Below, in pieces: positions 3,070 to 55,731 of a stretch of 64,000 bases of DNA. A program made the position numbers and the translations under genes. Within the stretch, counting starts at the first letter, position 1. Each line of letters begins with the position of its first letter. Location: NCBI GenBank assembly GCA_002269645.1, contig NIVC01001024.1, positions 186,001 through 250,000 on the forward strand, given 5' to 3'. The notes under the pieces are model-generated. The model had not been told where the DNA came from. It made no database searches and saw only the letters and a list, made by a program, of their open reading frames with translations. Source of the DNA: Macrostomum lignano (taxonomy: Eukaryota).

Positions 3070-4690
3070 TCAGGCGGTCTGAGACCTCGGCGAGCCGCCG
3101 CCATCCAGCAGGCAAAACTCGTGGCAGAAGCAGTTCTTGTCGTTCTCCGACAGGAACTGGAAGTCCTGGCTCTGAACAACGCTGCTGTAGGAAAAGTGTC
3201 GCCGAATTGCGCGCATCACGGCCAGCTGCAGCTGCGGCTCATGCAAGTGCCGGTTGCAGGTGAGCCACAGGCTGACGAGATCGCCTGGGCTCCAGCTGAT
3301 CCGAGTCTGAGTCTGAGACGCCTCGCCTGATGACGACGTCACAGAGCCGCCAGAGCCGGTCGGTTTGGCTGCGGCGTCCATCTGGAATGTAGAGATTTTA
3401 CAGAAAAATTACACGTCATTGTTTCATGACACCAAACGGATTAAAAATGGCCTAACTTTGAACTTTAACTTTGGGCGAAACATGCTTTGCTCTTAACTGT
3501 AAGGCGTAGGCCGGAAAATTTCCTAGTGACGAAAACCCAACAAATTAAAAGCAACAATACCCAATCCTTCCTTCTTTCACTACAAAGTGATTGCTCTCCG
3601 ATTTGTCCCTTTTGTGATCTAGAGGAGGAAACTTTGTAGCACACCGTCACCTTCTGCCCGCATTTCAACGAAGCGCAAAGACGGCACCTCGGACACCCGC
3701 TGGGACTGGACGAGCTCGCACCACCCCCGACCGGATCCGTGACCTGCCAAACCCTTCGGAAGCCGCCAGTCTTACCTGTAGGCAGTGGTTGATGAACCGA
3801 CTGCACTGCAGCAGAACCGCCGGCACGCCATATTGATCCGCAATGCGAGCCAGCATGCGAAACGTTTCAAACCTGGCAATGTTGAAGGACTGATGCGACT
3901 GCAGGTAGAACAGGAAGCACTTCATCTCGAAGGTGTACTCCGCGTCGCAGTGGATGGCCGCGTCTCGATCGGCGTCGAAGTTCCACAACGGCGAGGTGAG
4001 CAGCACGCGGCAGTAGTCGGAGTGCGTCAGCAGCAGCAGCCGGGGCGCCCGCACCGAGCCGTCCCGGCATCGCAGCGTCACCCAGGCCGATTCGTCGATG
4101 TCTTCTTCGCTGGGTCCGCCTTCCTCGTCCTCCTCATCATCGCCGCCGTAGCCGTTGCCGGGCACCCCGTCGAATGCGGCCACAGGCGGTGGCTTCAGGA
4201 ACGCTGGCGACGCGTCCGTGATGCGGAGGAGGAAGCAGAACTCGACAATGGATGCGCTCGGATCCGACGAAGTTTCCTCGGCGGCACCCGCAGGGTTCTC
4301 CAGATCGGAGCGGCTGAGGCAGGAGGGCAGCGTGACGATTTCTCTGCCGGTGGTCCAGGAGGCGGGCTCTGCCAGGGCTCGGCAGCTGACCAGATTGCCG
4401 TCAATCTGGATGCAGCAGGTCAGGCGAGCCCGGATCTCGTATTCGCAGCAGATGTCGAGAGCTCGAAGGCAGAAGACAACATGAAGTGAGTCGCTCTCGG
4501 CTAGGACAAGAATTCCGCAGCCGATGGAAGTGAATTCGAGACCGTCAACGCGGGAGAGCGGCTTGGACTTGACGGCTCCCTCGCTGGCGGCCTGTAGCAG
4601 ATCGAGCAGTTCCTGCTTGTTCATCCTGGTGCTCAGGCCGAACCGGATTCGGTCGTCCTCGCTAGGCGGCGATGCGGGATCCGTGCGCAT
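3070..4690 (-). CDS. MATH/TRAF-like + BTB/POZ domain protein (SPOP-like adaptor), 3 coding exons
   Basis: Exons 4690-3776, 3743-3651 and 3381-3070, all joined in phase 0 by GT-AG introns (CAG|GTAAG, AAG|GTGACG, TTCCAG|ATG). BTB-like segment: VTLRCRDGSVRAPRLLLLTHSDYCRVLL...LARIADQYGVPAVLLQCSRFI. The N-terminal MATH assignment is weaker. Confidence 0.8.
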
Positions 4691-5459
4691 GCTGACTAGC
4701 AAGATTTCGGTTCGCTATGGTTCCTGGAGTTACCAGTATACGAGCTTGACACGCGCAGGGAGTTGCCAATGTTTTGGCAAATTTTATTCTGCAAGCACTG
4801 GTGGCAGGGGTAGGGTGGGGGTGGGCCAACTGGCTGTGGTTGGCTGGCTGCTTGTCTGGATGCTTTCCAGTGTACAGTCCTGAGAGTTGGGTATTGTGAG
4901 TGTGAGAGACTCTATAGGGGTTCAATTAAAACATGCTTGTGCCCGAAAGCACTCGAATAACCTTAGGTGACCCTGTTCTCAGACTGTGAACACAGCTCAA
5001 ACTGTTTTGTTAGATTTTTAGCGTGCACAAGGCATCTGGAATTTTAATAGCGATGAAGCTGGGTGAAGTGGTCGTATAGAGACGAGATTTCGGAGTGAGT
5101 CTGGTGGGTGAGACAGGCTACAGAAGCAAATTTGCATCCAGTTTTTTCAAGAAATGGACAGATCAACACAGTCCTGTCCTCAAGTTTCGTTTAGAAGATT
5201 TGATGCCATTTTTAGAAACTTCGAACTACTTATCTCTAAAATATGAAGGCAAGTGGCGCATGCAGAGAGAGAGAGAGGTAATTTGCTTTTGGTTCGACAG
5301 CAGGGCATCTGTCTTCCATATTTGTGGATGAAACGATGCCCTGTCCATGGGGTCTGAAGGATGACGTCGTCGTCATGCGCTTTGTTTGGGACTGGAACTC
5401 ATGCGCTGCTTTTAGTGCCAAAATTTTCAAATCTTCTTAAATTTTAAAAGACTCATGAA

Positions 5460-5748
5460 GTGGCGCCCCTCCCTCAAATGAAATGGCGCCCCAGCTCTCT
5501 TAAATAAAATGGCGCCCCTCATTCAAATGAAATGGCGCCCCTCACTCAAATAAAATGGCGCCCCTCACTCAAATGAATTATGGCACCCCTCACTCAAATG
5601 AAATGGCGCCCCTCTTTTAAATGAAATGGCGCTCGTCCCCAAATGAAATGGCGCCCCTCACTCAAATGAATTGGCGCCCCTCTCCCAAATGAAATGGCGC
5701 CCCTCACTTAAATGAACTGGCGCCCCTCACTTAAATTAAAGGCGCCCC
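5460..5748. repeat. ~23-24-bp minisatellite (AAATGAAATGGCGCCCCTCACTC), left part of the array split by the pPolB element
   Basis: Tandem units; the same array resumes in the same orientation at 14489. Confidence 0.9.
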
Positions 5749-6416
5749 ACTACTAAGCAACGGTAGATCCGTCGATTTTGGAGGTGAGGTGGGTGTCAAC
5801 CCTCCGCGCCTCTCATTGGCTGGCGCCCCGATCACTAGGTGATCGATACCCGTATCGATATCGGCGCTCGGCGCGCGCGCGCGCCGCAGGCACCAAGCGC
5901 CGCAGGCGACCCTCCCCAGCCGTAGGCGCACCTACCGATATTAGATCCCAATAAATCAATCAGATCCCAAATCAATCAGATCCCAAATCAATCAGATCCC
6001 AAGCGCACCCTCCCGAGCCGCAGGCGCCCATGCAGCAGGCGCCCATGCCGCAGGCACCCCGAGTGTACACTCTACCGAGCCGCAGGCACCCCGAGTGTAC
6101 ACTCTACCGAGCCGCAGGCACCCCGAGTGTACACTCTACCGAGCCAAAGGTACACTCTACCACTCTCCCGATATGTACACTCTACCACTCTCCCGATATG
6201 TAGTCAACGATATTAGGCTAGTGAAAACTACTTATAGTAGGTGAAATTGCGTATATTTACATAAAAATGTAGATAAAACATATTGGTAGGTGAATAATGA
6301 CGCATAATACATATTGGAGCATATGAGCAGCAAAAACACACAATGTAGGTGCATTGGCAGAAATAGACAAAGCAGGTACTGTAGGCGCTACATAGGTGGA
6401 AATACACACAGCAGGT
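5749..6416 (+). repeat. Left terminal inverted repeat
   Basis: Reverse complement of ~13804-14488, e.g. TTTTGGAGGTG...GATCACTAGGTGATCGATACCCGTATCG and the AT-rich block ending GCAGGT. Contains internal ~31-bp tandem repeats. Confidence 0.9.
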
Positions 6417-7003
6417 TTACAAAGTGTACTTTCGATACATATCGGATCAATGTATAAAGCGGGTTTACAAGGCATGCATAAGGCGTAGTTGTATAATGCA
6501 GGTGCGCATGTATAATCAGATTATAGGCAAACGCCCAGGTGCAACAGACGCGTAAATAATGTCACACCGACTAAAGAGTAAATATTGTCTAACCCGCAGG
6601 TGCATAAAAATTTTAACCAAAAGCGGTTCGGGGAAATCCCAAAAGGGTGGTTCACGACCTAATGACCCGATATACTTTCAACACAATTAAACCCACAAGT
6701 GGGCTAGAAAAATGGACGTATTTCGATTGCGCTATCAGTACGCTAATCAGCGCAGCAAGTTTATGTCAGGAGTTCTACTCCAAGAGGCGGACCGCTGGGC
6801 CACAAACCGCCCCGAGGGAATAGGTGTCAAATGGGAGTTTTAACACTTGAGGGGATCCCTCATGTACAGTGGAGGTGCCAAATGAGTAAGGACCCCTAAG
6901 TACAGTGCGGGCGTAAAACCATTTTCATCCCCACGAGTCAAGGGATCCCAAGTGGGCACATAGGGGAATCCCAGGCGTGCAAAGACAGATCCTTATCTTT
7001 CAC

Positions 7004-10000
7004 TCACTCCCGAAAGCCATACGGGCGGCTAGCGGCCCCATACACCCTCTTAGTCATTACGCGCTGGAAAGTCTTGTCCATCTCGAGGGTCCGGATTGTA
7101 CAGCTAGACTTATCGCGCCTGAACTGGGCCTGGGGCAGGCGTACAGTCCCGCCGTGGCGCAGAATTTCCTGCAGCTCGTCCTCGCGCTCGGAAATCTCGG
7201 GGGTGACTCTGATGCCCTTGCACTTGAGCACCGAGTACAGCGACCCGTCGGGCTTCTCCACTAAGTACCGGTAGAGCTTGGGGCCTCCCGTGGTGAACTG
7301 TACCATGCGGCAGCCAGCAGGTACTTCGTCAGTCCACTGCCCCAAACTCGAACCGCCCGGAGGCTCGTACTCGCCCGGTGAGCAGCGGTATACAACCCTG
7401 GGAGGAGGAGAAGGATAAAGTGTTAAGGGGAGAAAGAGAGACAGAGACAGTTGAAAAAATTACTCACGAATCAGTATCGGCGTAAATGACGCGGGTTCCT
7501 AGACCCTCCAGAGCCTCGTAGAGTCGCAGCCGGGCGTGGGAGGTGGTGAAAACGCCAATAGGTACATTAGCGTACTTGAACGCCCGCTCGCCAGCACCGC
7601 CAAATCGGGGCTTGTACTCGAGCATCATGAAGCTCTCCCCAATTGGCTCGCACGACTTGACCTTGATCGAGGGGTCGGTCAGGCGCTGCAGCCACGCCTC
7701 GTAGCTGTCCACAATCTCTGTGGAGGTCAGGTCGTCGCGCTGGCAGAATTTGCCCCAGAGCCTGCAGGGAAAAATAAATTTTATGTAAGTAGAAAAACAC
7801 GGCCCCCACTGCAAGTAGAAAAAACTTACGAGTTTAGAAAAATCTTGGCCACAAAGCGCAAGCCAGGATTCTCCTCCACCTTTTCCAGCCGGACGCCTTC
7901 GCGCTCGAAAAAGCTGGCCATGTAGGCAGCCTTGGCGTCCTCAGCCATCCCCGGCGAACCGCTAGACTCGGCTTTGAGCTTCAAAAAAGTGTTTACATAA
8001 TCTGCAAACAGGCCCGTGCGAGTCTCGGTCCAATAGGCCAGGGCATGAACTGACTGCAGCTTGTAACCCAACTGCAGGGCTTTGTGGAGCTCTGGGGTCG
8101 ACCACGTGCCGCGGAGCATTCTCTCAGCGTCAGTGTGTGTACACTCGCTGCTGCACTGGGTCTCCATGCAGACGCGGCAGAGGCCGAAAACCAACTTCTT
8201 GTTAATCTTGGCGGGCAGTAGCGGGATGTGGAGATTGGTTGGCGGCAGAATCGACACCTCGGCGATGCCAAAATACCGGGCCAGCTGCAGCTCATCCAGT
8301 AGATGAGGCTCGGGGTGGTGTACCGGGTGCCCGACCGGGTACTTGTCAAACTTGTTGACAGTCGGGTAGAGCGACACCTAGGGGATAAGGATAAGATAAA
8401 CTCAAACGCATGTCAACTGTGTGTGTACAAGTGTACAAACTTACCACATCCCGATAGCGCAGCTCTACAGTCTCGGTGGCCTCGGCGTGCGGGACAAAAG
8501 CCTCGGTACGGCCGCCAAACAGGGCATCCTCCAGGCGAATAGGCTGCTGGACTGGCGCTCCCTCGTCCTGATAGTCGTGCTCCCACAGAACACGCACATT
8601 GTATGCAGTGGAGAGCAGCCGGGTGAAGCGCTCGGTCTCTTCATAAATTGCCCGCATTGGCTGGTTCTTGAGCGGGTGCAGCACGTCGCCGTTGGGGAAG
8701 CACTTGGGACAGCCATGGAAGAAACAGCCATGAAACTGCAGCACTGTCCTGGTCTCTGGGTCGAAGCCGTCGACCTTACGGCCCATGGCGAAAGCCTCGC
8801 CGCCAGAATCGGCTGTCCTCAACCGGCCGCCAAACTCGGTTGCATTTAAATGTGCCAGCCAGCACCGCGCCTTGTGCGACTGTACATCGGACCGGCGGGA
8901 AATCACCCCAAGAGTGTTGGGCTCCATAAACTTGGTGGTGAATACCGACATGGCCAAGCCCGCAATGGTGTTGGATTGAACAAATGCGTCCAGTCCGCAA
9001 ATGTCCTTAATCAGGCGGGCATATTTCAGGCAGCCTTCCCGCAAAATTAACGTGTCCTGCAGGCAATAGTCCAGGTACGCCTTATTAAAATTAAACACCT
9101 GTCCCTCCTGCTTGGCCAGCCAGTCGGCGATGGAGTCATGCTGCTTATTCTTCTTCCCGCCGTACATATCAATTGAGCAGTAGGGACCGACGTACCCCCA
9201 ATTTTGAGGCTGATTGAAGACGTGCGGGAAATCTCCTTTGGTCAGTTGGGTGCCCAAACCAAGCGCCTTTGGGAATTGCGCCAGACCAATAGGGATGAAA
9301 TTGAGGCTGTCCTTGAAGGTGATCTTGTCGCACTTCATGTACATTAGGCGGCTGTTCTGGAAGATCACCTGCGGCTTCTTCTTGGCCAGTCCGTTGAGTA
9401 GGGCGCCGAGCAGGAGGAATGCGTCATACGCAGAGCCATTGTGCGCAATAGCAATTGCCCCCTGCTTGAACACACTAGTCAGCCAGCAGTAAAATGCATC
9501 GATAGAGTGCGGCCCGACAGATACAAACTCTCGCATCCCACAGGCACAGTCATTGTGCGAGACACAGCTCGTGAAATCCAGCGCCAGATTGCGTCCCGCA
9601 ATGCAATTGGCTGAGCTGTGTAGTCCCCCGCACGCGCTGCAGCGGGGCCTGGGGAAGAGTTTGGGACACGCCTCGCAGGAGGTGGCAGCCGTAACCAAGT
9701 GTACCCGGTGCTGCTTGCCAGAGTCCACGTACGTCTCGAAATCATAGTAAACATACGGGGCGCTAGACTCTTTGGCTTTTGGCGGGGTGACAAAGCACTC
9801 GTGGGTGGCAGTTTCGTCGTACTGCTTGCAGACTGGGCACTTGGCGTAACCACACTGATGCTCAGGGGGCTGGCCTACTTTTAGTTCTTCTAGATAGCCA
9901 CACGTGCCGCAAACGTGGACCGAATCACAGCGCGATCTGCCGGCCTTATTCTTGCGTTTGTGATTTTCTAGGCACTGAGCATTATAGCAATTTAGCCCGC

Positions 10001-11991
10001 AATCATGGCATCTTACATATGCGCGGTTTGCCTTACAGTTGGAGCCCGGAGTCTTGCATGTACTGCAGGCATCGGCGCACTTGTGCTCGGCGTTGGCGCA
10101 GTCGTAGGCCATCTCGCACTTGGGGCAGTAGTGATCGGAGCCGAAAAACGCTGGCAGCTTGGTGACCACATTAAAGTGCTGCTCGACCAGGTGTAGGTGC
10201 AGAATCTCGGTGCCCGGCAGGTTGAAGATGCACCTGTTGGCCTCCTCTGCGCGGTACACGCGTACACCAAAATCGCGCCCCGGATGCAGCCGGTTCAGGG
10301 CTCGGATCGCTTCGGGCAGTGCATCCACGCCGAAAGGACCAGCCTGCGAGACGGTTTGAAGAGTCTGTGTGGAGGGTAAAATATTTCTTTTAGTATTCCT
10401 TATCGTAAAATTTCTTATCAGAAAATTTTAGTATTCCCTGATACTGCGTAAAAATTCTTATCAGAAAAATACTAGAAACTTACCGTGTAGAGGCCTGCCT
10501 CGATTTGTAGCTCAGCCACCAGCTTAGTCTGCGTGGGCGAATTGGCCTTGATCGTGCGCCACAGCCGCTCGGTGATGGACTTGGCCACGAATTGCAGGTA
10601 GGCGCAGGCCACGACCAGAGCGCGCAGCAGGCATCTCTTGTCCGAGTTGGTGATGCGGACATAGTGCCTGGAGAAGGCATGCCGCTCTTCTAGATGCTTG
10701 TTCTCGAGGGCACAGCCACCTCGAGGCACCCAGGCCTTTAGCAGACGGACAGAAAAGTTGCCTGACAATACAGTGGCATCCGACTGCACAATCTTGTCAA
10801 TGTGCTTAAACAACAATTCAGCCGTCATGCGGGCTGCACGCACCGGGGGAGTATGGGCTGCTTTGAGCATATTGTCGCTCTCGAATTTCGCGGCCATAAA
10901 GTCATCACCAGCCAAATCTTGCTTGAAAACTTCGAGCATGTCAGCAAACACCTCCCGCAAATCTTCGGTGTTGGTAATACGCACCACATACTCGACACCC
11001 TTTGCCCTAAACTTGGGCAGGTCACGCTGATTATCCAGCCGGGCCGTAAAACCTGCATGGGGGGAATGGGGGAGTGTGAGTCAGCCCGGGTCTGTGTGGG
11101 AAATGGGGGGCGGGATAACTCACCCGGTCCGGTAACAGATTCCGGCTGTGTTGGCGGGACAAACGCGTCTGAAAAAACACAAGGAGATAAAAAACCAGAA
11201 GAATCTGTCATTTTCCTGGCCCCAGCGTGTTTCCCAGCCCTAGCCCCAGCAATTTCTTAACAGAGTTTACTCTGCTGTCCCCGCAGCAACTCTCTGCAAT
11301 TTCTTATCTGCACCCCCGCTGCAGCCTGTCGCAGCAGTCTTTGTTTACTCACCCCTGCAACTCTCTGTCGCAGCAATTTGCACCTAGCTGCAGCCTGTCT
11401 GGGTAGCGCCCCTGCCAATTTCTTATCAGTCTGTCCCCGCGCTACACAGTCCCAGCAACTCTCTGCCCCCACCCGGCTGTAACTTGTCTAGCCTGCCCCA
11501 ACGATTCTGCAGCAATTTCTTATCTGCCGCAGCACCCTAGCAACTGTCTGTTTTTGCAGCAATTTCTTATCAGCACACCCCTCCCTGTCTAGACAACACC
11601 CCACCCCAGTCTTTGTTTACTCACCCCTGCAACTCTCTGTCGCAGCAATTTGCACCCCAGCTGCAGCCTGTCTGGACAACACCCCCCTAGCAGCAATTTC
11701 TTATCAGCACACACCCGGCTGAAACTTGTCTAGCCCTCCCCTGCAACTCTCTGTTACAGACCCTGCCGCAGCACCCCACCCTAGCAACTCCAGTCTAGAC
11801 CCCTGCAGCTGTCGCAGCAGTCTTTGTTGTTTACTCTGCGGTCCCACAGACCCTGCAGCTGCTGCTGCTGCTCAGCCCCTACCCCCCACCCTAGCAACTA
11901 CAGTCTAGACAGAAATTAATTAAAACTTACCATAAAGACGTTGCCTCTTGTCAGCCAGAAAAGCAGTTGCGGTGGCGCTGCGTTTAGCCAT
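7004..11991 (-). CDS. polB: Protein-primed family B DNA polymerase (Polinton type), 7 exons, 1,269 aa
   Basis: Exons 11991-11931, 11168-11124, 11052-10484, 10343-8445, 8377-7830, 7761-7468 and 7397-7004 total 3,810 nt in frame, all with GT-AG introns. Exo I YYDFET, Exo II HNGSAYD, Exo III YCLQD; motif A DV|VSLYP, motif B KIFLNS|LWGKF, motif C YADTDS|VV; GPKLY; inserted VSR-like FHGCFFHGCPKC. Confidence 0.93.
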
Positions 11992-12229
11992 TTTGCAAAC
12001 AGAGAGCGTGAGAGAGCGGAGAGAGAAGGATTATCTCTCTACCCTGGCTCTGGGGGTCTGTATATATACTAAAAAATCTGCTCAGCTCGCCTGTTATTGG
12101 TCAATCGCCAAAAACCAACCAAAATCATCAAAAATCACCCCCAAAATCATCACCCACCCCACCCTCCATCCGGGGGTATATAAGGCGCTGCACGGCTGTC
12201 AGAGAGCTCTCTGCTGCTGCTGCTAAATC
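11992..12229. promoter_or_regulatory. Putative bidirectional promoter between pPolB and the PC4-like gene
   Basis: Head-to-head ATGs 238 bp apart; TATA-like TATATATA near 12061 and TATATAA near 12178; ATTGG/CAAT near 12095. Confidence 0.55.
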
Positions 12230-12727
12230 ATGTCTTCTATCTCTCTATACGAAAACTTTGTGGCGCGGAAGCCCACATTTGAAACTGAACACAACTTGAT
12301 TGAAATTCGGCGTCTCTACACCAACGAGGCTGGAGTGTGGAAGGACGGCTTCCCTGCAATCTACTTGAGCGAGCCAGAGTGGAAGAAGCTCGAAGCTGCG
12401 CGCCCTGACCTGGAGGCTGCTGCCCGCCTTCACGTGAACAAGCGGGTCCTGTTGGGCAATTTCAAGGCAGTTGAAGCTTCGCGAGGGAGGATCCGTTTGC
12501 TGCGCAATTGGCTCAATCAGGACCCAAAGTTTAATTGGCGCTACACGATCGAATTCACGCCTGAACTGTGGCGCAGGATGTTTGCCGCCCGTTTGGACAA
12601 GCTCTTCAAGCCGGCACCTGAGGCACCCCCTCCAGCCAAGCGAGTCAAGACAGAGGACAATCTGCAGGACTGCCTTGACAGCATCAAACCCTACCCTTGG
12701 GGAAATCTGTTTGACGAGGGTTGCTAA
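12230..12727 (+). CDS. PC4/Sub1-like ssDNA-binding protein, probably a tandem PC4 fold, 165 aa
   Basis: IEIRRLY...WKDG...IYLSEPEWKKL resembles the PC4 pattern (VDIREYY..G..KPG..GISL...QW..L). A second similar unit is IRLLRNW...YTIEFTPELWRRM. NLS-like PAKRVK; TATA upstream. Confidence 0.7.
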   Translation: MSSISLYENFVARKPTFETEHNLIEIRRLYTNEAGVWKDGFPAIYLSEPEWKKLEAARPDLEAAARLHVNKRVLLGNFKAVEASRGRIRLLRNWLNQDPKFNWRYTIEFTPELWRRMFAARLDKLFKPAPEAPPPAKRVKTEDNLQDCLDSIKPYPWGNLFDEGC

Positions 12728-13803
12728 TTGAGGCGTGCCGCATCCGTACAGCGCGAACCCGATTTTGGTAAGCTTAATTTCATATAAATCGTATATAAAT
12801 TACATATAATCTGTCTACATTGAATATTTTTTACTTTGACAGATGTTTCGAGAGCGCTGATGAGGAGGAGACTGCCCTGGCTGAAGATCGCGCTCGAGTT
12901 TGACTGATAAGGGAATTTCTCTTTGTACTCTGTTACTCTCTGCATGCACTGTACTTGGGCCTCGCAACACACTGGGGGGATCCCTCAACTTGGAGAGCTA
13001 CCCTCTGGGGATCCACTAAAACCCTCATTTGGGGTGGGAGCTGCGGTAAAGTTTGACTGGAATTCTCTTTGTATGCGGTCTGTTACTCTACCTCCACTGT
13101 ACATTGGGGCGGGATCCTTCCTCATTTAACACCCCGGAGCGCACTGTGCATTGGGGGGCGGGATTCCTTCATCATTTGACACCCGGGAGCGCACTGTACT
13201 TGGGATCCGCTAAAACCCCTATTTGTATGCGGTCTGTTATTCTGCCCGCCCTGTGCAATGTGAGGGGTCCTTGATAACCCCCCATTTGGGGAGGATTGGA
13301 ATGCTCTCTGCCTGAACTGTACTTGGGATCCCCTTGAAAAAACCTTATTTGGGGCTTGGGGAGGAATGGAATTTCTCTCTGCCCGCACTGTACTGAGGAT
13401 CCCCTCTCGAAACATTGGCCCCTCGTACCCTATTTGGAAGCTATGGGTTGCAGACTAGGAACGCTCCTACCTGAACTGTACTCCGCTAGGATCCCCCGGC
13501 CCTGGGGAGGAATTTCTCTATGTTACTCCGCCCGCACTGTACATTGGGATCCCCCGGCCCTGACTCTGGGGGCGTGTCTCGAATATCCTGGGCTGGATAT
13601 TTTACTTTGCACCTATAAGCTTAATTTTGCATACATATGTTGTATTATACTTAACTTCCAGTGTGTGTATTTTATCCTATGCACTGAAATTTGTACCTGC
13701 GGGTTAATATGCAAAATGTATCGTTTAAAATGCGCCTACATTATATGCTATGTAATTTTCCTGTATTATACTCAATTTGCACCTACATTGTGTGTAAGTA
13801 TGC

Positions 13804-14488
13804 ACCTGCTGTGTGTGTATTTCCACCTATGTAGCGCCTACAGTACCTGCTTTGTCTATTTCTGCCCATGCACCTACATTGTGTGTTTTTGCTGCTCATA
13901 TGCTCCAATATGTATTATGCGTCATTATTCACACCTACCAATATGTTTTATCTACTTTTTATGTAAATATACGCAATTTCATCTACTATAAGTAGTTTTC
14001 ACTAGCCTAATATCGTTGACTACATATCGGGAGAGTGGTAGAGTGTACATATCGGTAGAGTGTACACTCGGGGCGCCTGCGGCTCGGTAGAGTGTACACT
14101 CGGGGTGCCTGCGGCTCGGTAGAGTGTACACTCGGGGTGCCTGCGGCTCGGTAGAGTGTACACTCGGGGTGCTTGCGGCATGGGGCGCCTGCAGCATGGG
14201 GGCCTGCGACATACATATCGGAAGGGTGCGCATACATATCGGGAGGGTACCCCTGCGGGATGGGCGCCTGCTGCTCTGGAGGGTCGCCTGCGGCTCGGGA
14301 GGGTGCACATATCGGGAGGGTGCGCCTGCGGCGCTTGGCGCCACGCGCCTGCGGCGCGCGCGCACCGAGCGCCGATATCGATACGGGTATCGATCACCTA
14401 GTGATCGGGGCGCCAGCCAATGAGAGGCGAGGAGGGTTGACACCCACCCCACCTCCAAAAACGCCCGGAAAACTGCACGTATAGTAGT
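13804..14488 (-). repeat. Right terminal inverted repeat
   Basis: Reverse complement of the left TIR. Confidence 0.9.
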
Positions 14489-14610
14489 CGCCCCTCTCTC
14501 AAATGAAATGGCGCCCCTCTCCCAAATGAAATGGCGCCCCTCACTCAAATGAATTGGCGCCCCTCTCCCAAATGAAATGGCGCCTCTACCTCAAATGAAA
14601 TGGCGCCCCT
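14489..14610. repeat. Right part of the interrupted GGCGCCCC minisatellite
   Basis: Same unit and orientation as 5460-5748. Confidence 0.9.
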
Positions 14611-22921: not shown

Positions 22922-23344
22922 GGTAACTATATGGCTTTGTGAAGCTTTGTGTGCGAAGGACTGCTTTTTTTCAAAAAAAGGTTTCTAGGACTCTTATAGC
23001 TTCGCTTGGATAGAGACAACAGCTAGCTCATATATGAGATCAGAGTACACTTTTATAACAACCTACAGTGTATTCTGGATGCGCTCTTCACGGGTGTACA
23101 TAATTGATAAGCAACTATACAATAAGCTTGTGCAGAGTGCAATAAGAGGTGCAGGGTGAGACCGTTGTGAGGAGAGAGACAGAGAGATAATGACAGTGGG
23201 TCTCTAGCAGGACTGACTGTCCGACTGCCCCTTCTTGTTCTTGTTGTTAGGCGAAGAAATTTTCATTTTTCTTTCTTGTAAAAGAGACGTCTGATGCTGG
23301 ATAGAAACATGGCTGCATGTCTATCAAAATGCATGAATTCTCCC

Positions 23345-24160
23345 CCCCCCCTAACCCCATCCACCTCCCTCTCACCCCTTTCTCCCTCCTTCTCACCCCT
23401 ATCCCCCTCCCTCTCACCCCTATCCCCCTCCCTCTCGCCCCTATCCCCCTCCCTCTCACCCCTATCCCTCTCCATCTCACCCCTCTCCCTCTCCCCCCTC
23501 TCCCTCTCCCTCTCGCCCCTATCCCCCTCCATCTCACCCCTCTCCCTCTCCCTCTCACCCCTCTCCCTCTCCCTCTCACCCTTATCCCTCTCCCTCTCAC
23601 CCCTATCTCTCTCCCTCTCACCCCTATCCCTCTCCCTCTCACCCCTATCCCCCTCCCTCTCGCCCCTATCCCCCTCCCTCTCACCCCTATCCCTCTCCAT
23701 CTCACCCCTCTCCCTCTCCCCCTCTCCCTCTCCCTCTCGCCCCTATCCCCCTCCCTCTCGCCCCTATCCCCCTCCATCTCACCCCTCTCCCTCTCCCTCT
23801 CACCCCTCTCCCTCTCCCTCTCACCCTTATCCCTCTCCCTCTCACCCCTCTCCCTCTCCCTCTCACCCCTCTCCCTCTCCCTCTCACCCTTATCCCTCTC
23901 CCTCTCACCCCTATCTCTCTCCCTCTCACCCCTATCCCTCTCCCTCTCACCCCTATCTCTCTCCCTCTCACCCCTTTCTCCCTCCTTCTCACCCCTATCC
24001 CTCTCCCTCTCACCCCTATCTCTCTCCCTCTCACCCCTTTCTCCCTCCTTCTCACCCCTATCCCTCTCCCTCTCACCCCTATCTCTCCCTCTCACCCCTA
24101 TCCTCTCCTTCTCACCCCTATCCTCTCCTTCTCACCCCTATCCCCTCCCTCTCACCCTAC
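23345..24160. repeat. C/T-rich ~21-bp array (CTCACCCCTATCCCCCTCCCT)
   Basis: Tandem units; reverse complement of the 26385-27000 array. Confidence 0.95.
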
Positions 24161-24638
24161 CCGATTGCTCAAGGGCATACTAAATGCACTAACAATACAA
24201 CAAACATACGCCCCTTATCCGACCTAAGTCCCGTTTCTAAGACAACCGAGTGTATCGGGGGCCTCAAATTTCCAAAGAGAGTTTTGAGGGCTCAGGAAAT
24301 TGCGACAGTGCTTCGGAGCCAGAGTCTGGCACTCTTCCCCGATTTTCCTGCATTCGAATAGCATTAGGATGAGTGGCTGCTCAAGGAAAGCCGAGAAGAG
24401 TCACGGAGACAGTTTATGTGCAAGAGAGATTTTCGCTTCGCGTGTTCCAATCAGAGTTGATCCGGCAGAGAGGTTTGCGTCTTTGACGGTTATTAGCCCC
24501 CCTGGCCGATAGAAACACAGGAAAAAGCAAGCTTTGCATGTATCGCTGAGGGATTCGATTTCGAGAAAGAAGAAACGAGAAAGCAGGTTGAATATTTTTG
24601 AGAAAAAGCAAAGGTCTTCCTTCAGCAGCTGCACCGCC

Positions 24639-27600
24639 ATGGCTGGACTGGGGATGTCACCTGAGGACAAAAGGTTAATAACCGAGGACTGGGCAGCCGC
24701 TTCTGCGGACAGGCGAGCCCTGGGAACCGCCATCTTCATCAGGTAAGGGAAGAAGATGCTCATACATGATCATACTTGATCATACATGAACATACATGAT
24801 CATAATCGCTCATACATGAACATACATGATCATAACCGCTAATACATGAACATACATGATCATAACCGCTCATACATGAACATACATGATCATAACCGCT
24901 CATACATGAACATACATGATCATAACCGCTCATACATGAACATACATGATCATAAACGCTCATACATGAACATACATGATCATAACCGCTCATACATGAA
25001 CATACATGATCATAACCGCTCATACATGAACATACATGATCATAACCGCTCATACATGAACATACATGATCATAAACGCTCATACATGAACATACATGAT
25101 CATAACCGCTCATACATGAACATACATGATCATAAACGCTCATAGATGCTCACACACGATCAGATGCTCGTACATTAACATAGACGCTCATAAACGCTCA
25201 TAAATTATCATGAACGCTCATACACGATCATAAATGTTCACAAAGGCTCATAAACCCTCTTACACGATCAAAAAAGCTCATAAACAATCATGCACGATCA
25301 TACACAACCATAAACGCTCATACACGCTCAGGCAGGATCATAAAAGATCATTCACGCTTATAAACGCTCATACAAGATTATACGCTTCAAATTTGGACAG
25401 CTCGCCGTTTAGTCAATGGGCAAAAGTAGCAGATATCCAAACACTAGACATGCAGGCCACCCTTTAGACTTCTTAAACTCAGTACTCATTGAAGTCTGAC
25501 AGCGAGTGGGACAGCAAGAGGACAACCGTCCATGGTGTACATGTAGCTTCTTTGATTAATGATCCTTCCCTATCATCTTTATCACCACTCACCTCTACCC
25601 CCTCTCACCCCTACCCCCTCCCTCTCATATGATGATCTATGCCAACTAAATGACAAAGGTTATCAGCCAGAATAATAAGGTACAATAAGTGTGTCGAACT
25701 TCCCAGATAACCATTAACCATCTACCTCATCTACCTTACAAACTGTGTAATTTAATTACATACTGTCTACAATCTCTGTCACCTAAAGGAATCCTATGGC
25801 CTGTCTACGCAAACGTAAAAATATATACTGCTGATAATGATGACGTTTTAGTCTCTGCAGGACTGAGCTGGACAATGAGCATTGCATATAGTGTAGATTC
25901 TCATTAAGAGGCTGCTACAAGTCAGAAGCACTGTTGCTATGCACATTGACTCGACTATTAGCGATGCTCAAAAATAATCTTTATACCTCCTTGCCTATAG
26001 CTACCTGAGGAGACACCTCTGACAAGCGATGTCCCAGTAATCCGGGGACACCCCTGACACAAAAAGTGCACTACCAGCCAAAAAAACCTGGAATTCCAAA
26101 TTTCTACAAGGCTACTATTAGTAAACGGTATGCACTCTCAAAAACCGCCGCAGGCTGTTCGAGATGTACCCGGAGGTGCAGTCAATGTTCAGCCAGTTTC
26201 GCGGCAAACCGCTATATCAGCTGACTACATCGCCTAATCTAAAAGCTCACGGACTTCGGGTGGTGAACACGCTTGACGCCGCCATCAGCGACCTGCAGCG
26301 GGACGGCGAGACGTCGGAGGAGTCACTGCGGCTGATTGGAGAGTCGCACAGGCGGCGGGGAGTGCAGATGAGCCACTTTGAGGTGGGTGAGAGGGAGGGG
26401 GTTGGGGTGAGAGGGAGGGGGATAGGGGTGAGAGGGAGAGGGATAGGGGTGAGAGGGAGGGGGATAGGGGTCAGAGGGAGGGGGATAGGGGTCAGAGGGA
26501 GGGGGATAGGGGTCAGAGGGAGGGGGTAGGGGTGAGAGGCAGGGGGTTAGGGGTGAGAGGGAGGGGATAGGGGTGAGAGGGAGGGGATAGGGGTGAGAGC
26601 CAGGGGGATAGGGGTTAGAGGGAGGGGGATAGGGGTCAGAGGGAGGGGGACAGGGGTGAGAGGCAGGGGGTTAGGGGAGAGAGGGAGGGGGATAGGGGTG
26701 AGAGGCAGGGGTTAGGGGTAAGAGGGAGGGGGATAGAGGTAAGAGGGAGGGGGATAGGGGTAAGAGGGAGGGGGATAGGGGTGAGAAAGAGGGGGATAGG
26801 GGTGAGAGGCAGGGGTTAGGGGTAAGAGGGAGGGGGATAGGGGTAAGAGGGAGGGGGATAGGGGTGAGAGGGAGGGGATAGGGGTGAGAGGCAGGGGTTA
26901 GGGGTGAGAGGCAGGGGTTAGGGGTAAGAGGGAGGGGGATAGGGGTGAGGGGGAGGGGGATAGGGGTGAGAGGGAGGGGGTAGGGGTGAGAGGGGGGCAT
27001 CACAACCCCGAAATATCACATTGTCGAAAGTCCAAAACGCGGGGGGTTGTCAGAGTTTTCGAGAATGTGATATTTAGGGTTTATGATGGGGCTTGTCAGA
27101 GTTTTCGAGAATGTGATATTTAGGGTTTATGATGGGGCCTGTCAGAGTTTTCGAGAATGTGATATTTAGGGTTTATGATGGGGCTTGTCAGAGTTTTCGA
27201 GAATGTGATATTTAGGGTTTATGATGGGGCCTGTCAGAGTTTTCGAGAATGTGATATTTAGGGTTTATGATGGGGCTTGTCAGAGTTTTCGAGAATGTGA
27301 TACTTAGGGTTTATGATGGGGCTTGTCAGAGTTTTCGAGAATGTGATATTTAGGGTTTATGATGGGGCCTGTCAGAGTTTTCGAGAATGTGATATTTAGG
27401 GTTTATGATGGGGCTTGTCAGAGTTTTCGAGAATGTGATATTTAGGGTTTATGATGGGGCCTGTCAAAGTTTTCAAGAATGTGATATTTAGGGTTTATGA
27501 TGGGGCCTGTCAGAGTTTTCAAGAATGTGATATTTAGGGTTTATGATGGGGCCTGTCAGAGTTTTCGAGAATGTGATATTTAGGGTTTATGATGGGGCTT

Positions 27601-52560: not shown

Positions 52561-53809
52561 TACAACACGCAACATCGAATTGCAAAATGTCACATCAAAA
52601 ATATTGCACAGTACATTGAATACAAAATTAAATAAGAATAACTTTGCATCAATACAAATTAATTAAGCTTCTTTCCATTCACTCCAAACAAGAAAGACTA
52701 TCAAAAGATGTTGGCGTAAAACATAATTTTCTTTGAGAAAATAATCTGAAATTAACAACCTGTCAAGTGTAATCTGAGCAAGAGATTAAGTCTTACTGAA
52801 AAATTTGCACACGTCACGTGCACATAAAAAATGGAGAAAATTTGCAAAGCAACAGCCGCTGGGGGGGATTAAGACAGGGGCAAGGGCAAGGCTTCAGCTT
52901 AGAAAAGGTGAGCCTAGAATTTCCTTTTAAATCGAATAGCTCTTTGAGCCGAAGCCGTTAGAGCTTAATCCCAGTGACGTCATAGACTTATCCGATGAAA
53001 CGTTTTTATAGCTGGTCAGTTTATGAGCAGGAGAGTGGCTACTCAACTTTCTTATATTCTGTTCTCACTTTACTACGAGCTATAACCGCTAATTCTCTTA
53101 ATTGCGTCTGACGGGTGTCTCAGTGTCTCAGCAGTCTCAGTGTTGCTGATCTTTGACATGTTTACCATAAGCAAGGTTGATCAAGTCAATCCACTGTTAT
53201 TGATTGCACGCAAACGTGGCCCCGTCAAAGCAATCGCCAAGGAAGTTAATTAGGGCGTTACAAGGGATTTGAGAAACCTCAAGGGAGCCGGAAAAAACAA
53301 CGCAAAAAAATCGTGCTATTGCGCGCGAAAGATGGTGAAAAACACAGCCTCTTGTACTTCAGCTTCTTCAGTTTCTCTTCAAAATAGACCTGCCCTTGAA
53401 AAGTGCTACACCCCCTGTTTATTTCTAGGGTGAACTGTTAGACCCAAAATCAGTCCATGAACAGAAGTTGATCCTACAAAGGCGTTAATTCAATCAACGG
53501 ATTATCTTATTGTTGAGCCTTTGGCGGCTCTGCTTTCAAAAAACATTTGCGTCATCTTAGCTACAGAGAGATGGAAAAGCTTTGGCCAACTTGAGGTGAC
53601 CTTGTTTTAAGTTCTAAAAATAGCCGGCCAACCCAATATTCACATCTCGTTAGTGAAATGCTTTCCAAAAGAACTTTTAAGGACCAAGTAGCTTTTTCGT
53701 CTAAAAATTAATCTGTAAAAAATGATGAGAAGAGGTAAAAATTTGAGTGATAGACGTGAATGATAGTTTAAATTAGATGCTACCTACCTGCTGGAACCTC
53801 TTGCGCCCC

Positions 53810-55613
53810 TTGGTGCTGGCGCCCCTTGGTGCTGGCGCCCCTTGGTGCTGGCGCCCCTTGGTGCTGGCGCCCCTTGGTGCTGGCGCCCCTTGGTGCTGGC
53901 GCCCCTTGGTGCTGGCGCCCCTTGGTGCTGGCGCCCCTTGGTGCTGGCGCCCCTTGGTGCTGGCGCCCCTTGGTGCTGGCGCCCCTTGGTGCTAAAGCCC
54001 CTTGGTGCTAAAGCCCCTTGGTGCTGGCGCCCCTTGGTGCTGGCGCCCCTTGGTGCTAAAGCCCCTTGGTGCTGGCGCCCCTTGGTGCTGGCGCCCCTTG
54101 GTGCTGGCGCCCCTTGGTGCTGGCGCCCCTTGGTGCTGGCGCCCCTTGGTGCTGGCGCCCCTTGGTGCTGGCGCCCCTTGGTGCTGGCGCCCCTTGGTGC
54201 TGGCGCCCCTTGGTGCTAAAGCCCCTTGGTGCTAAAGCCCCTTGGTGCTAAAGCCCCTTGGTGCTAAAGCCCCTTGGTGCTGGCGCCCCTTGGTGCTGGC
54301 GCCCCTTGGTGCTGGCGCCCCTTGGTGCTGGCGCCCCTTGGTGCTGGCGCCCCTTGGTGCTAAAGCCCCTTGGTGCTGGCGCCCCTTGGTGCTGGCGCCC
54401 CTTGGTGCTGGCGCCCCTTGGTGCTGGCGCCCCTTGGTGCTGGCGCCCCTTGGTGCTGGCGCCCCTTGGTGCTGGCGCCCCTTGGTGCTGGCGCCCCTTG
54501 GTGCTGGCGCCCCTTGGTGCTGGCGCCCCTTGGTGCTGGCGCCCCTTGGTGCTGGCGCCCCTTGGTGCTAAAGCCCCTTGGTGCTAAAGCCCCTTGGTGC
54601 TGGCGCCCCTTGGTGCTAAAGCCCCTTGGTGCTAAAGCCCCTTGGTGCTAAAGCCCCTTGGTGCTGGCGCCCCTTGGTGCTGGCGCCCCTTGGTGCTGGC
54701 GCCCCTTGGTGCTGGCGCCCCTTGGTGCTAAAGCCCCTTGGTGCTGGCGCCCCTTGGTGCTGGCGCCCCTTGGTGCTGGCGCCCCTTGGTGCTGGCGCCC
54801 CTTGGTGCTGGCGCCCCTTGGTGCTGGCGCCCCTTGGTGCTGGCGCCCCTTGGTGCTGGCGCCCCTTGGTGCTGGCGCCCCTTGGTGCTGGCGCCCCTTG
54901 GTGCTAAAGCCCCTTGGTGCTAAAGCCCCTTGGTGCTAAAGCCCCTTGGTGCTAAAGCCCCTTGGTGCTAAAGCCCCTTGGTGCTAAAGCCCCTTGGTGC
55001 TAAAGCCCCTTGGTGCTAAAGCCCCTTGGTGCTAAAGCCCCTTGGTGCTAAAGCCCCTTGGTGCTAAAGCCCCTTGGTGCTAAAGCCCCTTGGTGCTAAA
55101 GCCCCTTGGTGCTAAAGCCCCTTGGTGCTAAAGCCCCTTGGTGCTAAAGCCCCTTGGTGCTAAAGCCCCTTGGTGCTAAAGCCCCTTGGTGCTAAAGCCC
55201 CTTGGTGCTAAAGCCCCTTGGTGCTAAAGCCCCTTGGTGCTAAAGCCCCTTGGTGCTAAAGCCCCTTGGTGCTAAAGCCCCTTGGTGCTAAAGCCCCTTG
55301 GTGCTAAAGCCCCTTGGTGCTAAAGCCCCTTGGTGCTAAAGCCCCTTGGTGCTAAAGCCCCTTGGTGCTAAAGCCCCTTGGTGCTAAAGCCCCTTGGTGC
55401 TAAAGCCCCTTGGTGCTAAAGCCCCTTGGTGCTAAAGCCCCTTGGTGCTAAAGCCCCTTGGTGCTAAAGCCCCTTGGTGCTAAAGCCCCTTGGTGCTAAA
55501 GCCCCTTGGTGCTAAAGCCCCTTGGTGCTAAAGCCCCTTGGTGCTAAAGCCCCTTGGTGCTAAAGCCCCTTGGTGCTAAAGCCCCTTGGTGCTAAAGCCC
55601 CTTGGTGCTAAAG
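53810..55613. repeat. 16-bp minisatellite, two variants (GCCCCTTGGTGCTGGC / GCCCCTTGGTGCTAAA)
   Basis: About 110 tandem units. Confidence 0.98.
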
Positions 55614-55731
55614 CCTGAAGCAATTAAAACAAACATTAATTTTTGATGTTCAAATAGTTTAAATAACGTGAAATCCCTGATTGAAGGCTCAAGTTTTTTT
55701 TCTTTTTCAACCTCCTGAATCCAGAGCAGTG

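Follow-up and report, generated by a model that had tools for sequence, protein, structure and literature searches.

Polinton/Maverick elements combine a DNA polymerase of family B that uses protein priming (pPolB) with long terminal inverted repeats, a short repeat at their very ends, and a 6-bp target duplication (PMC8097293, PMC5718144, PMC6431247), the last being a Maverick hallmark (PMC8097293). Polintons measure 12.7–24.6 kb and start with (AGT)2 or (AG)3, and one eel Maverick type with 5′-(AC)3A ends provides a rare AC-type precedent (PMC8097293). In intact Mavericks, the core genes are reported to lack introns (PMC8097293), and they are treated likewise elsewhere (10.1101/2022.07.12.499685); endogenous DNA viruses of this type are said to have no introns (PMC10120064). 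The 64,000-nucleotide stretch of Macrostomum lignano DNA analyzed here (the window; contig NIVC01001024.1, positions 186,001–250,000 of the forward strand) contains an element with the same four features, but one measuring only 8.5–9.8 kb across its copies, starting with 5′-ACTACT, and devoid of integrase, capsid, ATPase, and protease genes. Its pPolB gene (7004–11991, minus strand) is divided by six spliceosomal introns, where intact vertebrate Mavericks have none. Because neither integrase nor structural genes were found, the end motif differs, and the core is not intronless, the element is classed as a Polinton derivative rather than a member. An earlier sequence-only reading of the locus rightly took Polinton pPolB genes to be normally single open reading frames (ORFs), as described for intact Mavericks (PMC8097293), but it missed the context, which is not an ordinary Polinton but an 8.7-kb element lacking integrase and capsid genes.

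That reading had drawn introns of 762, 71, 140, 67, 68, and 70 nt in phases 1, 1, 0, 0, 2, and 2 and had named spliced transcripts at the six junctions as its check. Contigs of four public runs (X1, X3, X10, and X17) were aligned to positions 6900–12900 of the window. X1, X3, and X10 come from three separate studies; their RNA nature is a software guess, and none is on record as RNA. Contigs of all three skip exactly 762, 71, 68, and 70 nt, those of X1 and X3 also skip 67 nt, and the intron 3 joint in all three spans 119 nt (10365–10483), with a CAG acceptor 21 nt upstream of the one that gives 140 nt. Among the joints listed (five weaker ones lie beyond these), five were seen in all three probable RNA runs and that of intron 4 in two. 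The unlabelled run X17 contained none of the six splice joints and only repeat-deletion joints, and thus behaves as a DNA control. The case for splicing is drawn from the splice joints themselves and not from the RNA label of the runs. The pPolB gene is transcribed, and six introns are spliced from its transcript. The predicted positions, phases, and five lengths stand; intron 3 is spliced as 119 nt instead. Minor use of its 140-nt acceptor may occur as well. Both acceptor CAGs are kept in 18 of 19 copies of the family to which the element belongs (family A), and a second family (family B) has its intron 3 acceptor at the position originally drawn.

Exon 1 (11931–11991) begins with the ATG at 11991, and its joint was found in three of the four runs. 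It is followed by the repeat-rich intron 1 (11169–11930; 762 nt, phase 1), the 45-nt exon 2 (11124–11168), whose counterpart was seen by eye in five family-B copies, and intron 2 (11053–11123; 71 nt, phase 1). Exon 3 (10484–11052) has no Pfam match and presumably encodes a terminal-protein domain and a vOTU-type cysteine, the latter named from its motif. Downstream of intron 3 (10365–10483; phase 0; the second CAG would place its boundaries at 10344–10483), exon 4 (8445–10364) matches PF03175 (E = 6.6e-14) and ends in the first half of motif A. From motif patterns, we take exon 4 to hold a vOTU-type histidine, a Cys-rich region, exonuclease motifs I–III, and a VSR-like nuclease motif, the last without a Pfam call. 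The order terminal protein, vOTU, exonuclease, and palm is that of 10.1101/2024.03.18.585575, applied here through these motifs. Intron 4 (8378–8444; 67 nt, phase 0; its joint listed for X1 and X3 but not for X10) interrupts motif A (YRDV|VSLYP); exon 5 (7830–8377; PF03175, E = 1.2e-12) runs from motif A to motif B; intron 5 (7762–7829; 68 nt, phase 2) interrupts motif B (FLNS|LWGK); exon 6 (7468–7761) leads from there to motif C, where intron 6 (7398–7467; 70 nt, phase 2) is located (DTDS|VV); and exon 7 (7004–7397) includes the stop codon. All seven exons are stop-free and all six introns are GT..AG on the minus strand. The corrected model, in which the shorter intron 3 adds seven stop-free codons and leaves the phase at 0, yields a product of 1276 aa. 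These data confirm a protein-primed B-family polymerase with six spliced GT-AG introns, three of them in palm motifs A, B, and C, and the three motif junctions are those of the sequence-only reading.

Continuous homologues align along exons 4–7 without a gap, and a single codon is divided at each of the phase-2 junctions (in P0010, the junctions fall at residues 882|883, 1048|1050, and 1161|1163), so introns 4–6 are exact insertions in the three motifs. None of their lengths is a multiple of 3, and the unspliced gene therefore has no in-frame palm, as had been claimed. By chance, three of six introns would fall within the three motif cores with a probability of about 1e-4; counting any of ten catalytic motifs raises this to 3e-3, in a test devised after the data were seen. 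In B-family polymerases, motifs A, B, and C are likewise favoured sites of inteins and self-splicing introns. The adenovirus DNA polymerase, likewise protein-primed, needs nuclear splicing of a small upstream exon in its mRNA; its catalytic body is one exon, and its palm is not known to contain introns. For the gene studied here, the proposal that activity is gated by nuclear splicing holds insofar as splicing is needed to make the enzyme; regulation by splicing would be a further, hypothetical step.

The element carrying the gene spans 8740 bp (5749–14488), with ends ACTACTA...TAGTAGT and the target duplication CGCCCC at 5743–5748 and 14489–14494. Its left terminal inverted repeat (5749–6416, plus strand; ~670 bp, with internal tandem repeats) pairs with the right one (13804–14488, minus strand) at 86% identity over 680 columns; these repeats reach 1396 bp in other copies. 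A DNA search, in which the best 19 of 462 candidates were scored, gave 19 family-A copies of 8.5–9.8 kb at unrelated sites, all with identical ends and an exact 6-bp target duplication. A protein search, in which the best 70 of 222 candidates were scored, gave about 50 family-A loci and 19 family-B loci at 63–65% identity. Every copy seen is integrated in chromosomes, and the nearest database proteins, 98–99% identical, are labelled Macrostomum lignano. In 11 of 19 copies, the left end matches the right end of the same copy at 97% or more (median 0.97), compared with a median of 0.78 between copies.

Besides the polymerase, the only gene in the window's copy is a divergent ORF (12230–12727, plus strand) for a 165-aa PC4-like protein, a probable single-stranded-DNA-binding protein. 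Its own match to PF02229 is weak (E = 0.034); the family-B counterpart passes the cut-off (E = 1e-5), and the ORF matches the PC4 ORF of complete Polintons in the same genome at 1e-9, which adds a further likeness to Polintons. A single-sequence structure model was uninformative (pLDDT 38), and a PDB sequence search reached no better than E = 0.35, to PC4. A 75-nt GT..AG intron (12768–12842, plus strand) lies in the 3′ untranslated region of this gene, with a joint at 12766–12842 in X1, X3, and X10. The region between the two genes (11992–12229) contains two TATA-like stretches and is a putative divergent promoter. Rfam gave no match in three loci. Copies of 9.4–9.8 kb (e.g., L020:2148–3155) form a subfamily with an extra 336-aa ORF after the PC4-like gene, without a Pfam match. 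A tandem array with a ~22-bp unit surrounds the element (5460–5748 and 14489–14610), and several other copies also lie in tandem repeats.

The exons are under purifying selection. The ratio of nonsynonymous to synonymous differences (pN/pS) from the window was 0.08–0.17 in 17 of 18 family-A copies, in pairwise values that are interdependent, each being a comparison with the window; the eighteenth copy is a hybrid with a palindrome arm. The 17 dispersed copies other than this hybrid keep all six GT..AG pairs, and 7 of the 18 have neither frameshift nor stop. The earlier inferences of selection on the spliced product and of spread without an RNA intermediate are upheld by the exon pN/pS of about 0.1 and by this retention of introns, respectively. 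Family-B polymerases share 64% identity with family A, with a nonsynonymous divergence (dN) of 0.28–0.31 and a saturated synonymous divergence (dS) of 2.5–3.6. At introns 3–6, the two families agree in codon and phase, with GT..AG ends, at 23 of 23 junctions examined; by eye, intron 2 was also seen in five family-B copies, and the intron 1 donor was not located in family B. Since families with saturated synonymous sites share intron positions, the introns are older than the A/B split, and they probably arose in this lineage. The great age of the introns that was proposed from the sequence is borne out for introns 2–6. Family-B elements are 9.5–10.8 kb long with ends 5′-ACTACGTA, and these ends and the 6-bp duplication were present in all five copies in which both ends were found. 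An initial impression that family B lacks intron 3 (an 867-aa open frame) was wrong; intron 4 of this family is 81 nt in five of seven copies and reads through in frame. In one family-B copy (L052:6976–7434, G000:C1263), a dUTPase (PF00692, E = 2e-28) occurs together with a longer PC4-like ORF, and a PC4-like gene was matched in only 2 of 10 family-B contigs examined.

Twelve of 12 further end pairs (L067–L078; e.g., G000:C303:572722–582109) proved to be near-perfect palindromes of 6.7–9.4 kb, 11 of them of 8.1–9.4 kb, with about 99% identity between arms. They have ACTACT ends and, in 11 of 12, an exact 6-bp duplication, and they contain no polymerase match and no recognisable gene. The hybrid form is seen at G000:C428:214927–223625, where part of the polymerase and a palindrome arm lie between shared ends. 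Derivatives of 1–2 kb with the same ends (L117, L122, and L128) weaken the idea of a packaging-size rule.

Genes for integration and virion structure were sought in 38 elements (19 of family A, 7 of family B, and 12 palindromes). No match to integrase was found at E ≤ 10 in 10,995 fragments of these elements with a profile built from the integrase ORFs of complete Polintons, which it does recover (exons of fewer than 20 codons would escape), and tblastn found none either. For capsid, ATPase, protease, and penton, tblastn gave a best capsid match of E = 0.47, nothing for ATPase or penton, and a best protease match of E = 0.009 (28% over 64 residues) inside a family-B polymerase. The PF04665 profile missed ATPases genome-wide although ATPase ORFs exist, and its blanks carry little weight. 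Fifteen further stretches with family-A ends contained no Polinton integrase, capsid, ATPase, or protease. The genome does contain complete, capsid-coding Polinton-like elements of several kinds (G000:C130, C1113, C906, C2692, C114, C67, C273, C2541, and C175), one capsid type having more than 100 genome matches. In five complete-Polinton stretches, the polymerase is a single ORF of 1112–1312 aa of another type with no match to the exons described here, providing an intronless control in the same host. The C2541 polymerase lies in pieces, and one kind of complete element has a D5-type primase. L122 was considered as a helper, having an rve domain and the same ends; the domain belongs to a tandem long terminal repeat retrotransposon with reverse transcriptase, RNase H, and protease, taken as a nested insertion. 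A mariner-type transposase in L117 is likewise nested between the same ends.

Among other described systems, the polymerase can be set beside the pPolB2 class of Polintons, which carries a VSR insert (10.1101/2023.08.22.554363); it has a putative VSR-like motif between exonuclease and palm. Its identity to continuous database proteins of pPolB2-like layout is ~30–37%, and one of these is labelled a very-short-patch-repair endonuclease. In contrast to the present gene, pPolB2 occurs in complete Polintons, and the introns mentioned in the available text of 10.1101/2023.08.22.554363 are group I introns, as they are in PMC12220804. Linear plasmids and transpovirons are also capsid-less and reduced to a replication protein, transpovirons having lost their structural module (10.1101/2024.03.18.585575). 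Linear plasmids are, however, cytoplasmic or mitochondrial, whereas this element is nuclear, as its transcript is spliced, and is integrated with a 6-bp duplication. Transpovirons are giant-virus parasites whose pPolB is fused to a superfamily 1 helicase and has lost its exonuclease; here, no helicase family was matched and exonuclease motifs are present, as judged from motif patterns. Of the integrase-less Polinton-like viruses AHEV_PLV1 and Ca_PLV1, one is integrated without a detectable integrase, and its authors suggest integration genes in trans (PMC11296320); these viruses differ in being tied to entomopoxviruses, and the available part of that report does not mention spliceosomal introns. 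Dinoflagellate Polinton-like elements do contain introns (10.1101/2025.03.18.643946), but those introners are young transposons mostly gained after integration, whereas the positions here are common to families with saturated synonymous sites. The available parts of 10.1101/2024.03.25.586562, 10.64898/2026.10.13.758929, PMC10468722, PMC6431247, and PMC5718144 gave nothing further on introns or integrase-less elements. In the literature outside subscription journals, Repbase, and supplements, no account was found of Polinton polymerases split by spliceosomal introns, of Polintons reduced to a polymerase, or of any Polinton from this species.

Three ORFs from JGI and Logan contigs (P0158, P0159, and P0187) share 60–71% identity with families A and B; they either extend precisely from motif A to motif B or stop at motif C. 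Their limits coincide exactly with the splice junctions, so that there are probably more families with these introns. In a quick phylogenetic tree of mostly unnamed sequences, which omits 35 of 169 eligible rows, families A and B and two of these three ORFs form one branch (support 96) beside the continuous polymerase P0078 (support 100). More distantly, 120 unnamed ORFs (P0190–P0306, P0162, P0163, and P0171) are related to P0163, which is ~45% identical to exon 5. Eighty-one of them extend to motif B; of these, 65 are broken at the same serine codon, 14 are continuous, and 2 are of another kind (an earlier motif-B pattern gave 73, 15, and 1 of 89). The breaks take the form of R/S-stop or R-Y/W followed by a pyrimidine-rich read-through, compatible with a GT donor, and five relatives read through 66–78 nt back into motif B. 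Judged from these protein ends, the breaks would fit a phase-2 intron. In the quick tree, the proteins with the break lie apart from the present element and intermingle with continuous ones, a pattern suggestive of repeated gain or loss, and a break in such distant relatives would mean that an intron-split polymerase is not unique to this host. P0088, P0143, and P0031, labelled as motif-B breaks in the tree, each stop two residues past the motif, probably through truncation. Twenty loci from other collections were continuous at motif B in all 19 that reach it, and many of them adjoin genes for integrase, capsid, or ATPase. Viral contigs, scanned three times, yielded no relative. Continuous polymerases were also carried by Polinton contigs (L098–L116) in bacterial genome bins (Endozoicomonas, Rubritalea, and others), where host contamination is probable.

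The explanation we consider probable is that of a reduced Polinton/Maverick derivative that keeps only the replication module, copies itself, and is integrated in trans. Host RNA polymerase II would transcribe both genes from the divergent promoter, and the polymerase transcript, once processed by the spliceosome, would give the 1276-aa protein. In the nucleus, protein priming on the ACT-ACT repeat would then start strand-displacing replication at both ends of a free linear copy, while the PC4-like protein covers the strand that is displaced; pairing of that strand through its inverted repeats would even out the two ends of a copy, and template switching would yield fold-back and hybrid elements. 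The even ends within copies, the fold-backs, and the one hybrid may be indirect signs of such free-form replication. The target duplication fixed at 6 bp points to a retroviral-type integrase, which would insert new copies in trans and most likely comes from another Polinton-like element. Either the integrase of complete Polintons tolerates AC ends, or a helper is among the 99 of 199 end-motif matches beyond those listed. Introns would persist because copying is from DNA to DNA and exact loss is rare. Several observations weigh against this explanation. All forms seen are integrated, and neither the free linear form nor the protein or its activity was observed. No helper with ACTACT ends was found among the 100 of 199 end-motif matches listed, and complete elements, in five kinds with a readable end, all start 5′-AG and end CT-3′, whereas this element starts 5′-AC. 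The splice joints come from aligned contigs only, of runs whose RNA label is a guess, and the pN/pS values share one partner. Frameshifts or stops, from decay or assembly error, occur in 11 of 18 copies, and the palindromic loci L118 and L123 mirror flanking DNA too and may be assembly artefacts. Finally, the comparison of exons with introns that had been proposed came out as expected for the constrained exons but not for the introns, which differ less between copies (0.9–6%) than do synonymous sites (4–10%), a pattern that the model leaves unexplained.

The missing integrase could instead mean that the element is one segment of a multipartite Polinton-like virus, whose ACT-ended partner with integrase and capsid, perhaps itself intron-split, was missed. 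The similar sizes of the polymerase elements (8.5–9.8 kb), family B (9.5–10.8 kb), and 11 of 12 palindromes (8.1–9.4 kb) are what a packaging limit would give, the ends are unlike those of every complete Polinton read here, and half of the end matches (99 of 199) lie beyond those listed. However, none of 46 stretches with family-A ends (19 + 12 + 15) matches Polinton integrase, capsid, ATPase, or protease, and the 1–2-kb derivatives sharing these ends show that size is not fixed, which makes such a virus unlikely. It is still less probable that the element is self-sufficient, the VSR-like nuclease in its polymerase cutting host DNA and host repair joining the copies. A putative VSR-like motif in exon 4 and the VSR and HNH inserts described in Polinton pPolB2 (10.1101/2023.08.22.554363) speak for this, but an exact 6-bp duplication and precise ends at 19 unrelated sites are the mark of a DDE integrase, and VSR-bearing relatives adjoin an integrase gene in complete Polintons (e.g., L097 and L103). 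That the copies are dead or host-domesticated remnants, spread passively, would accord with the disrupted frames of 11 of 18 copies and with the guessed RNA label, but we give it hardly any credence given a pN/pS of ~0.1, target duplications that are exact and lie at different sites, left and right repeats that agree at 97% or more within 11 of 19 copies, and some 50 A-type and 19 B-type loci among the best 70 of 222 candidates.

A separate proposal, which would add to the reduced-derivative explanation rather than replace it, is the strong form of the gating idea: selection would have placed introns in motifs A, B, and C as a control switch, for example through germ-line-specific or small-RNA-controlled splicing. 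The concentration of three of six introns in motif cores (P of ~1e-4 to 3e-3) and the break at the same motif-B codon, which 65 of 81 distant relatives show and which seems to have been gained repeatedly, favour a switch. Any frame-shifting intron, though, blocks the enzyme wherever it is placed, conserved codons may simply give good splice contexts, and the joints occur in all three probable RNA runs; we hold the switch to be doubtful. The introns in catalytic motifs may be a selected safety catch or the product of a bias in intron gain. A broader extension of the reduced-derivative explanation, tentative although by no means far-fetched, is one of layered parasites: a nuclear, intron-dependent, polymerase-only replicon would borrow the integrase of an unseen element with non-standard ends and lend its polymerase to the palindromes and short derivatives, while introns would have been gained repeatedly at catalytic motifs elsewhere.

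Outside the element, the window contains a single-exon ORF with a weak BTB/POZ match (3668–4693, minus strand; E = 0.003) and long tandem arrays at 53677–55700 and 23300–26900 (a 16-bp unit and an inverted array pair with 21-bp spacing).

The locus adds splice joints, a polymerase-only layout with non-standard ends, and putative gene-less dependants to what is described for Polintons. Retaining the polymerase while dropping integrase and capsid is the reverse of the usual pattern in non-autonomous transposons, and the element may stand midway between Polintons and linear plasmids. Intact single ORFs are what surveys of Polintons and endogenous DNA viruses score, so that spliced, selected polymerases are missed and would be counted as fossils; with 65 of 81 distant relatives broken at motif B, this loss may well be large. 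In Macrostomum lignano, a laboratory flatworm, it becomes testable whether Polinton-type DNA replicates in a free linear form, how its ends become even, and whether an integrase acts in trans, and, if the layered-parasite extension is true, a large class of apparently broken Polinton polymerases would in fact be spliced and working.

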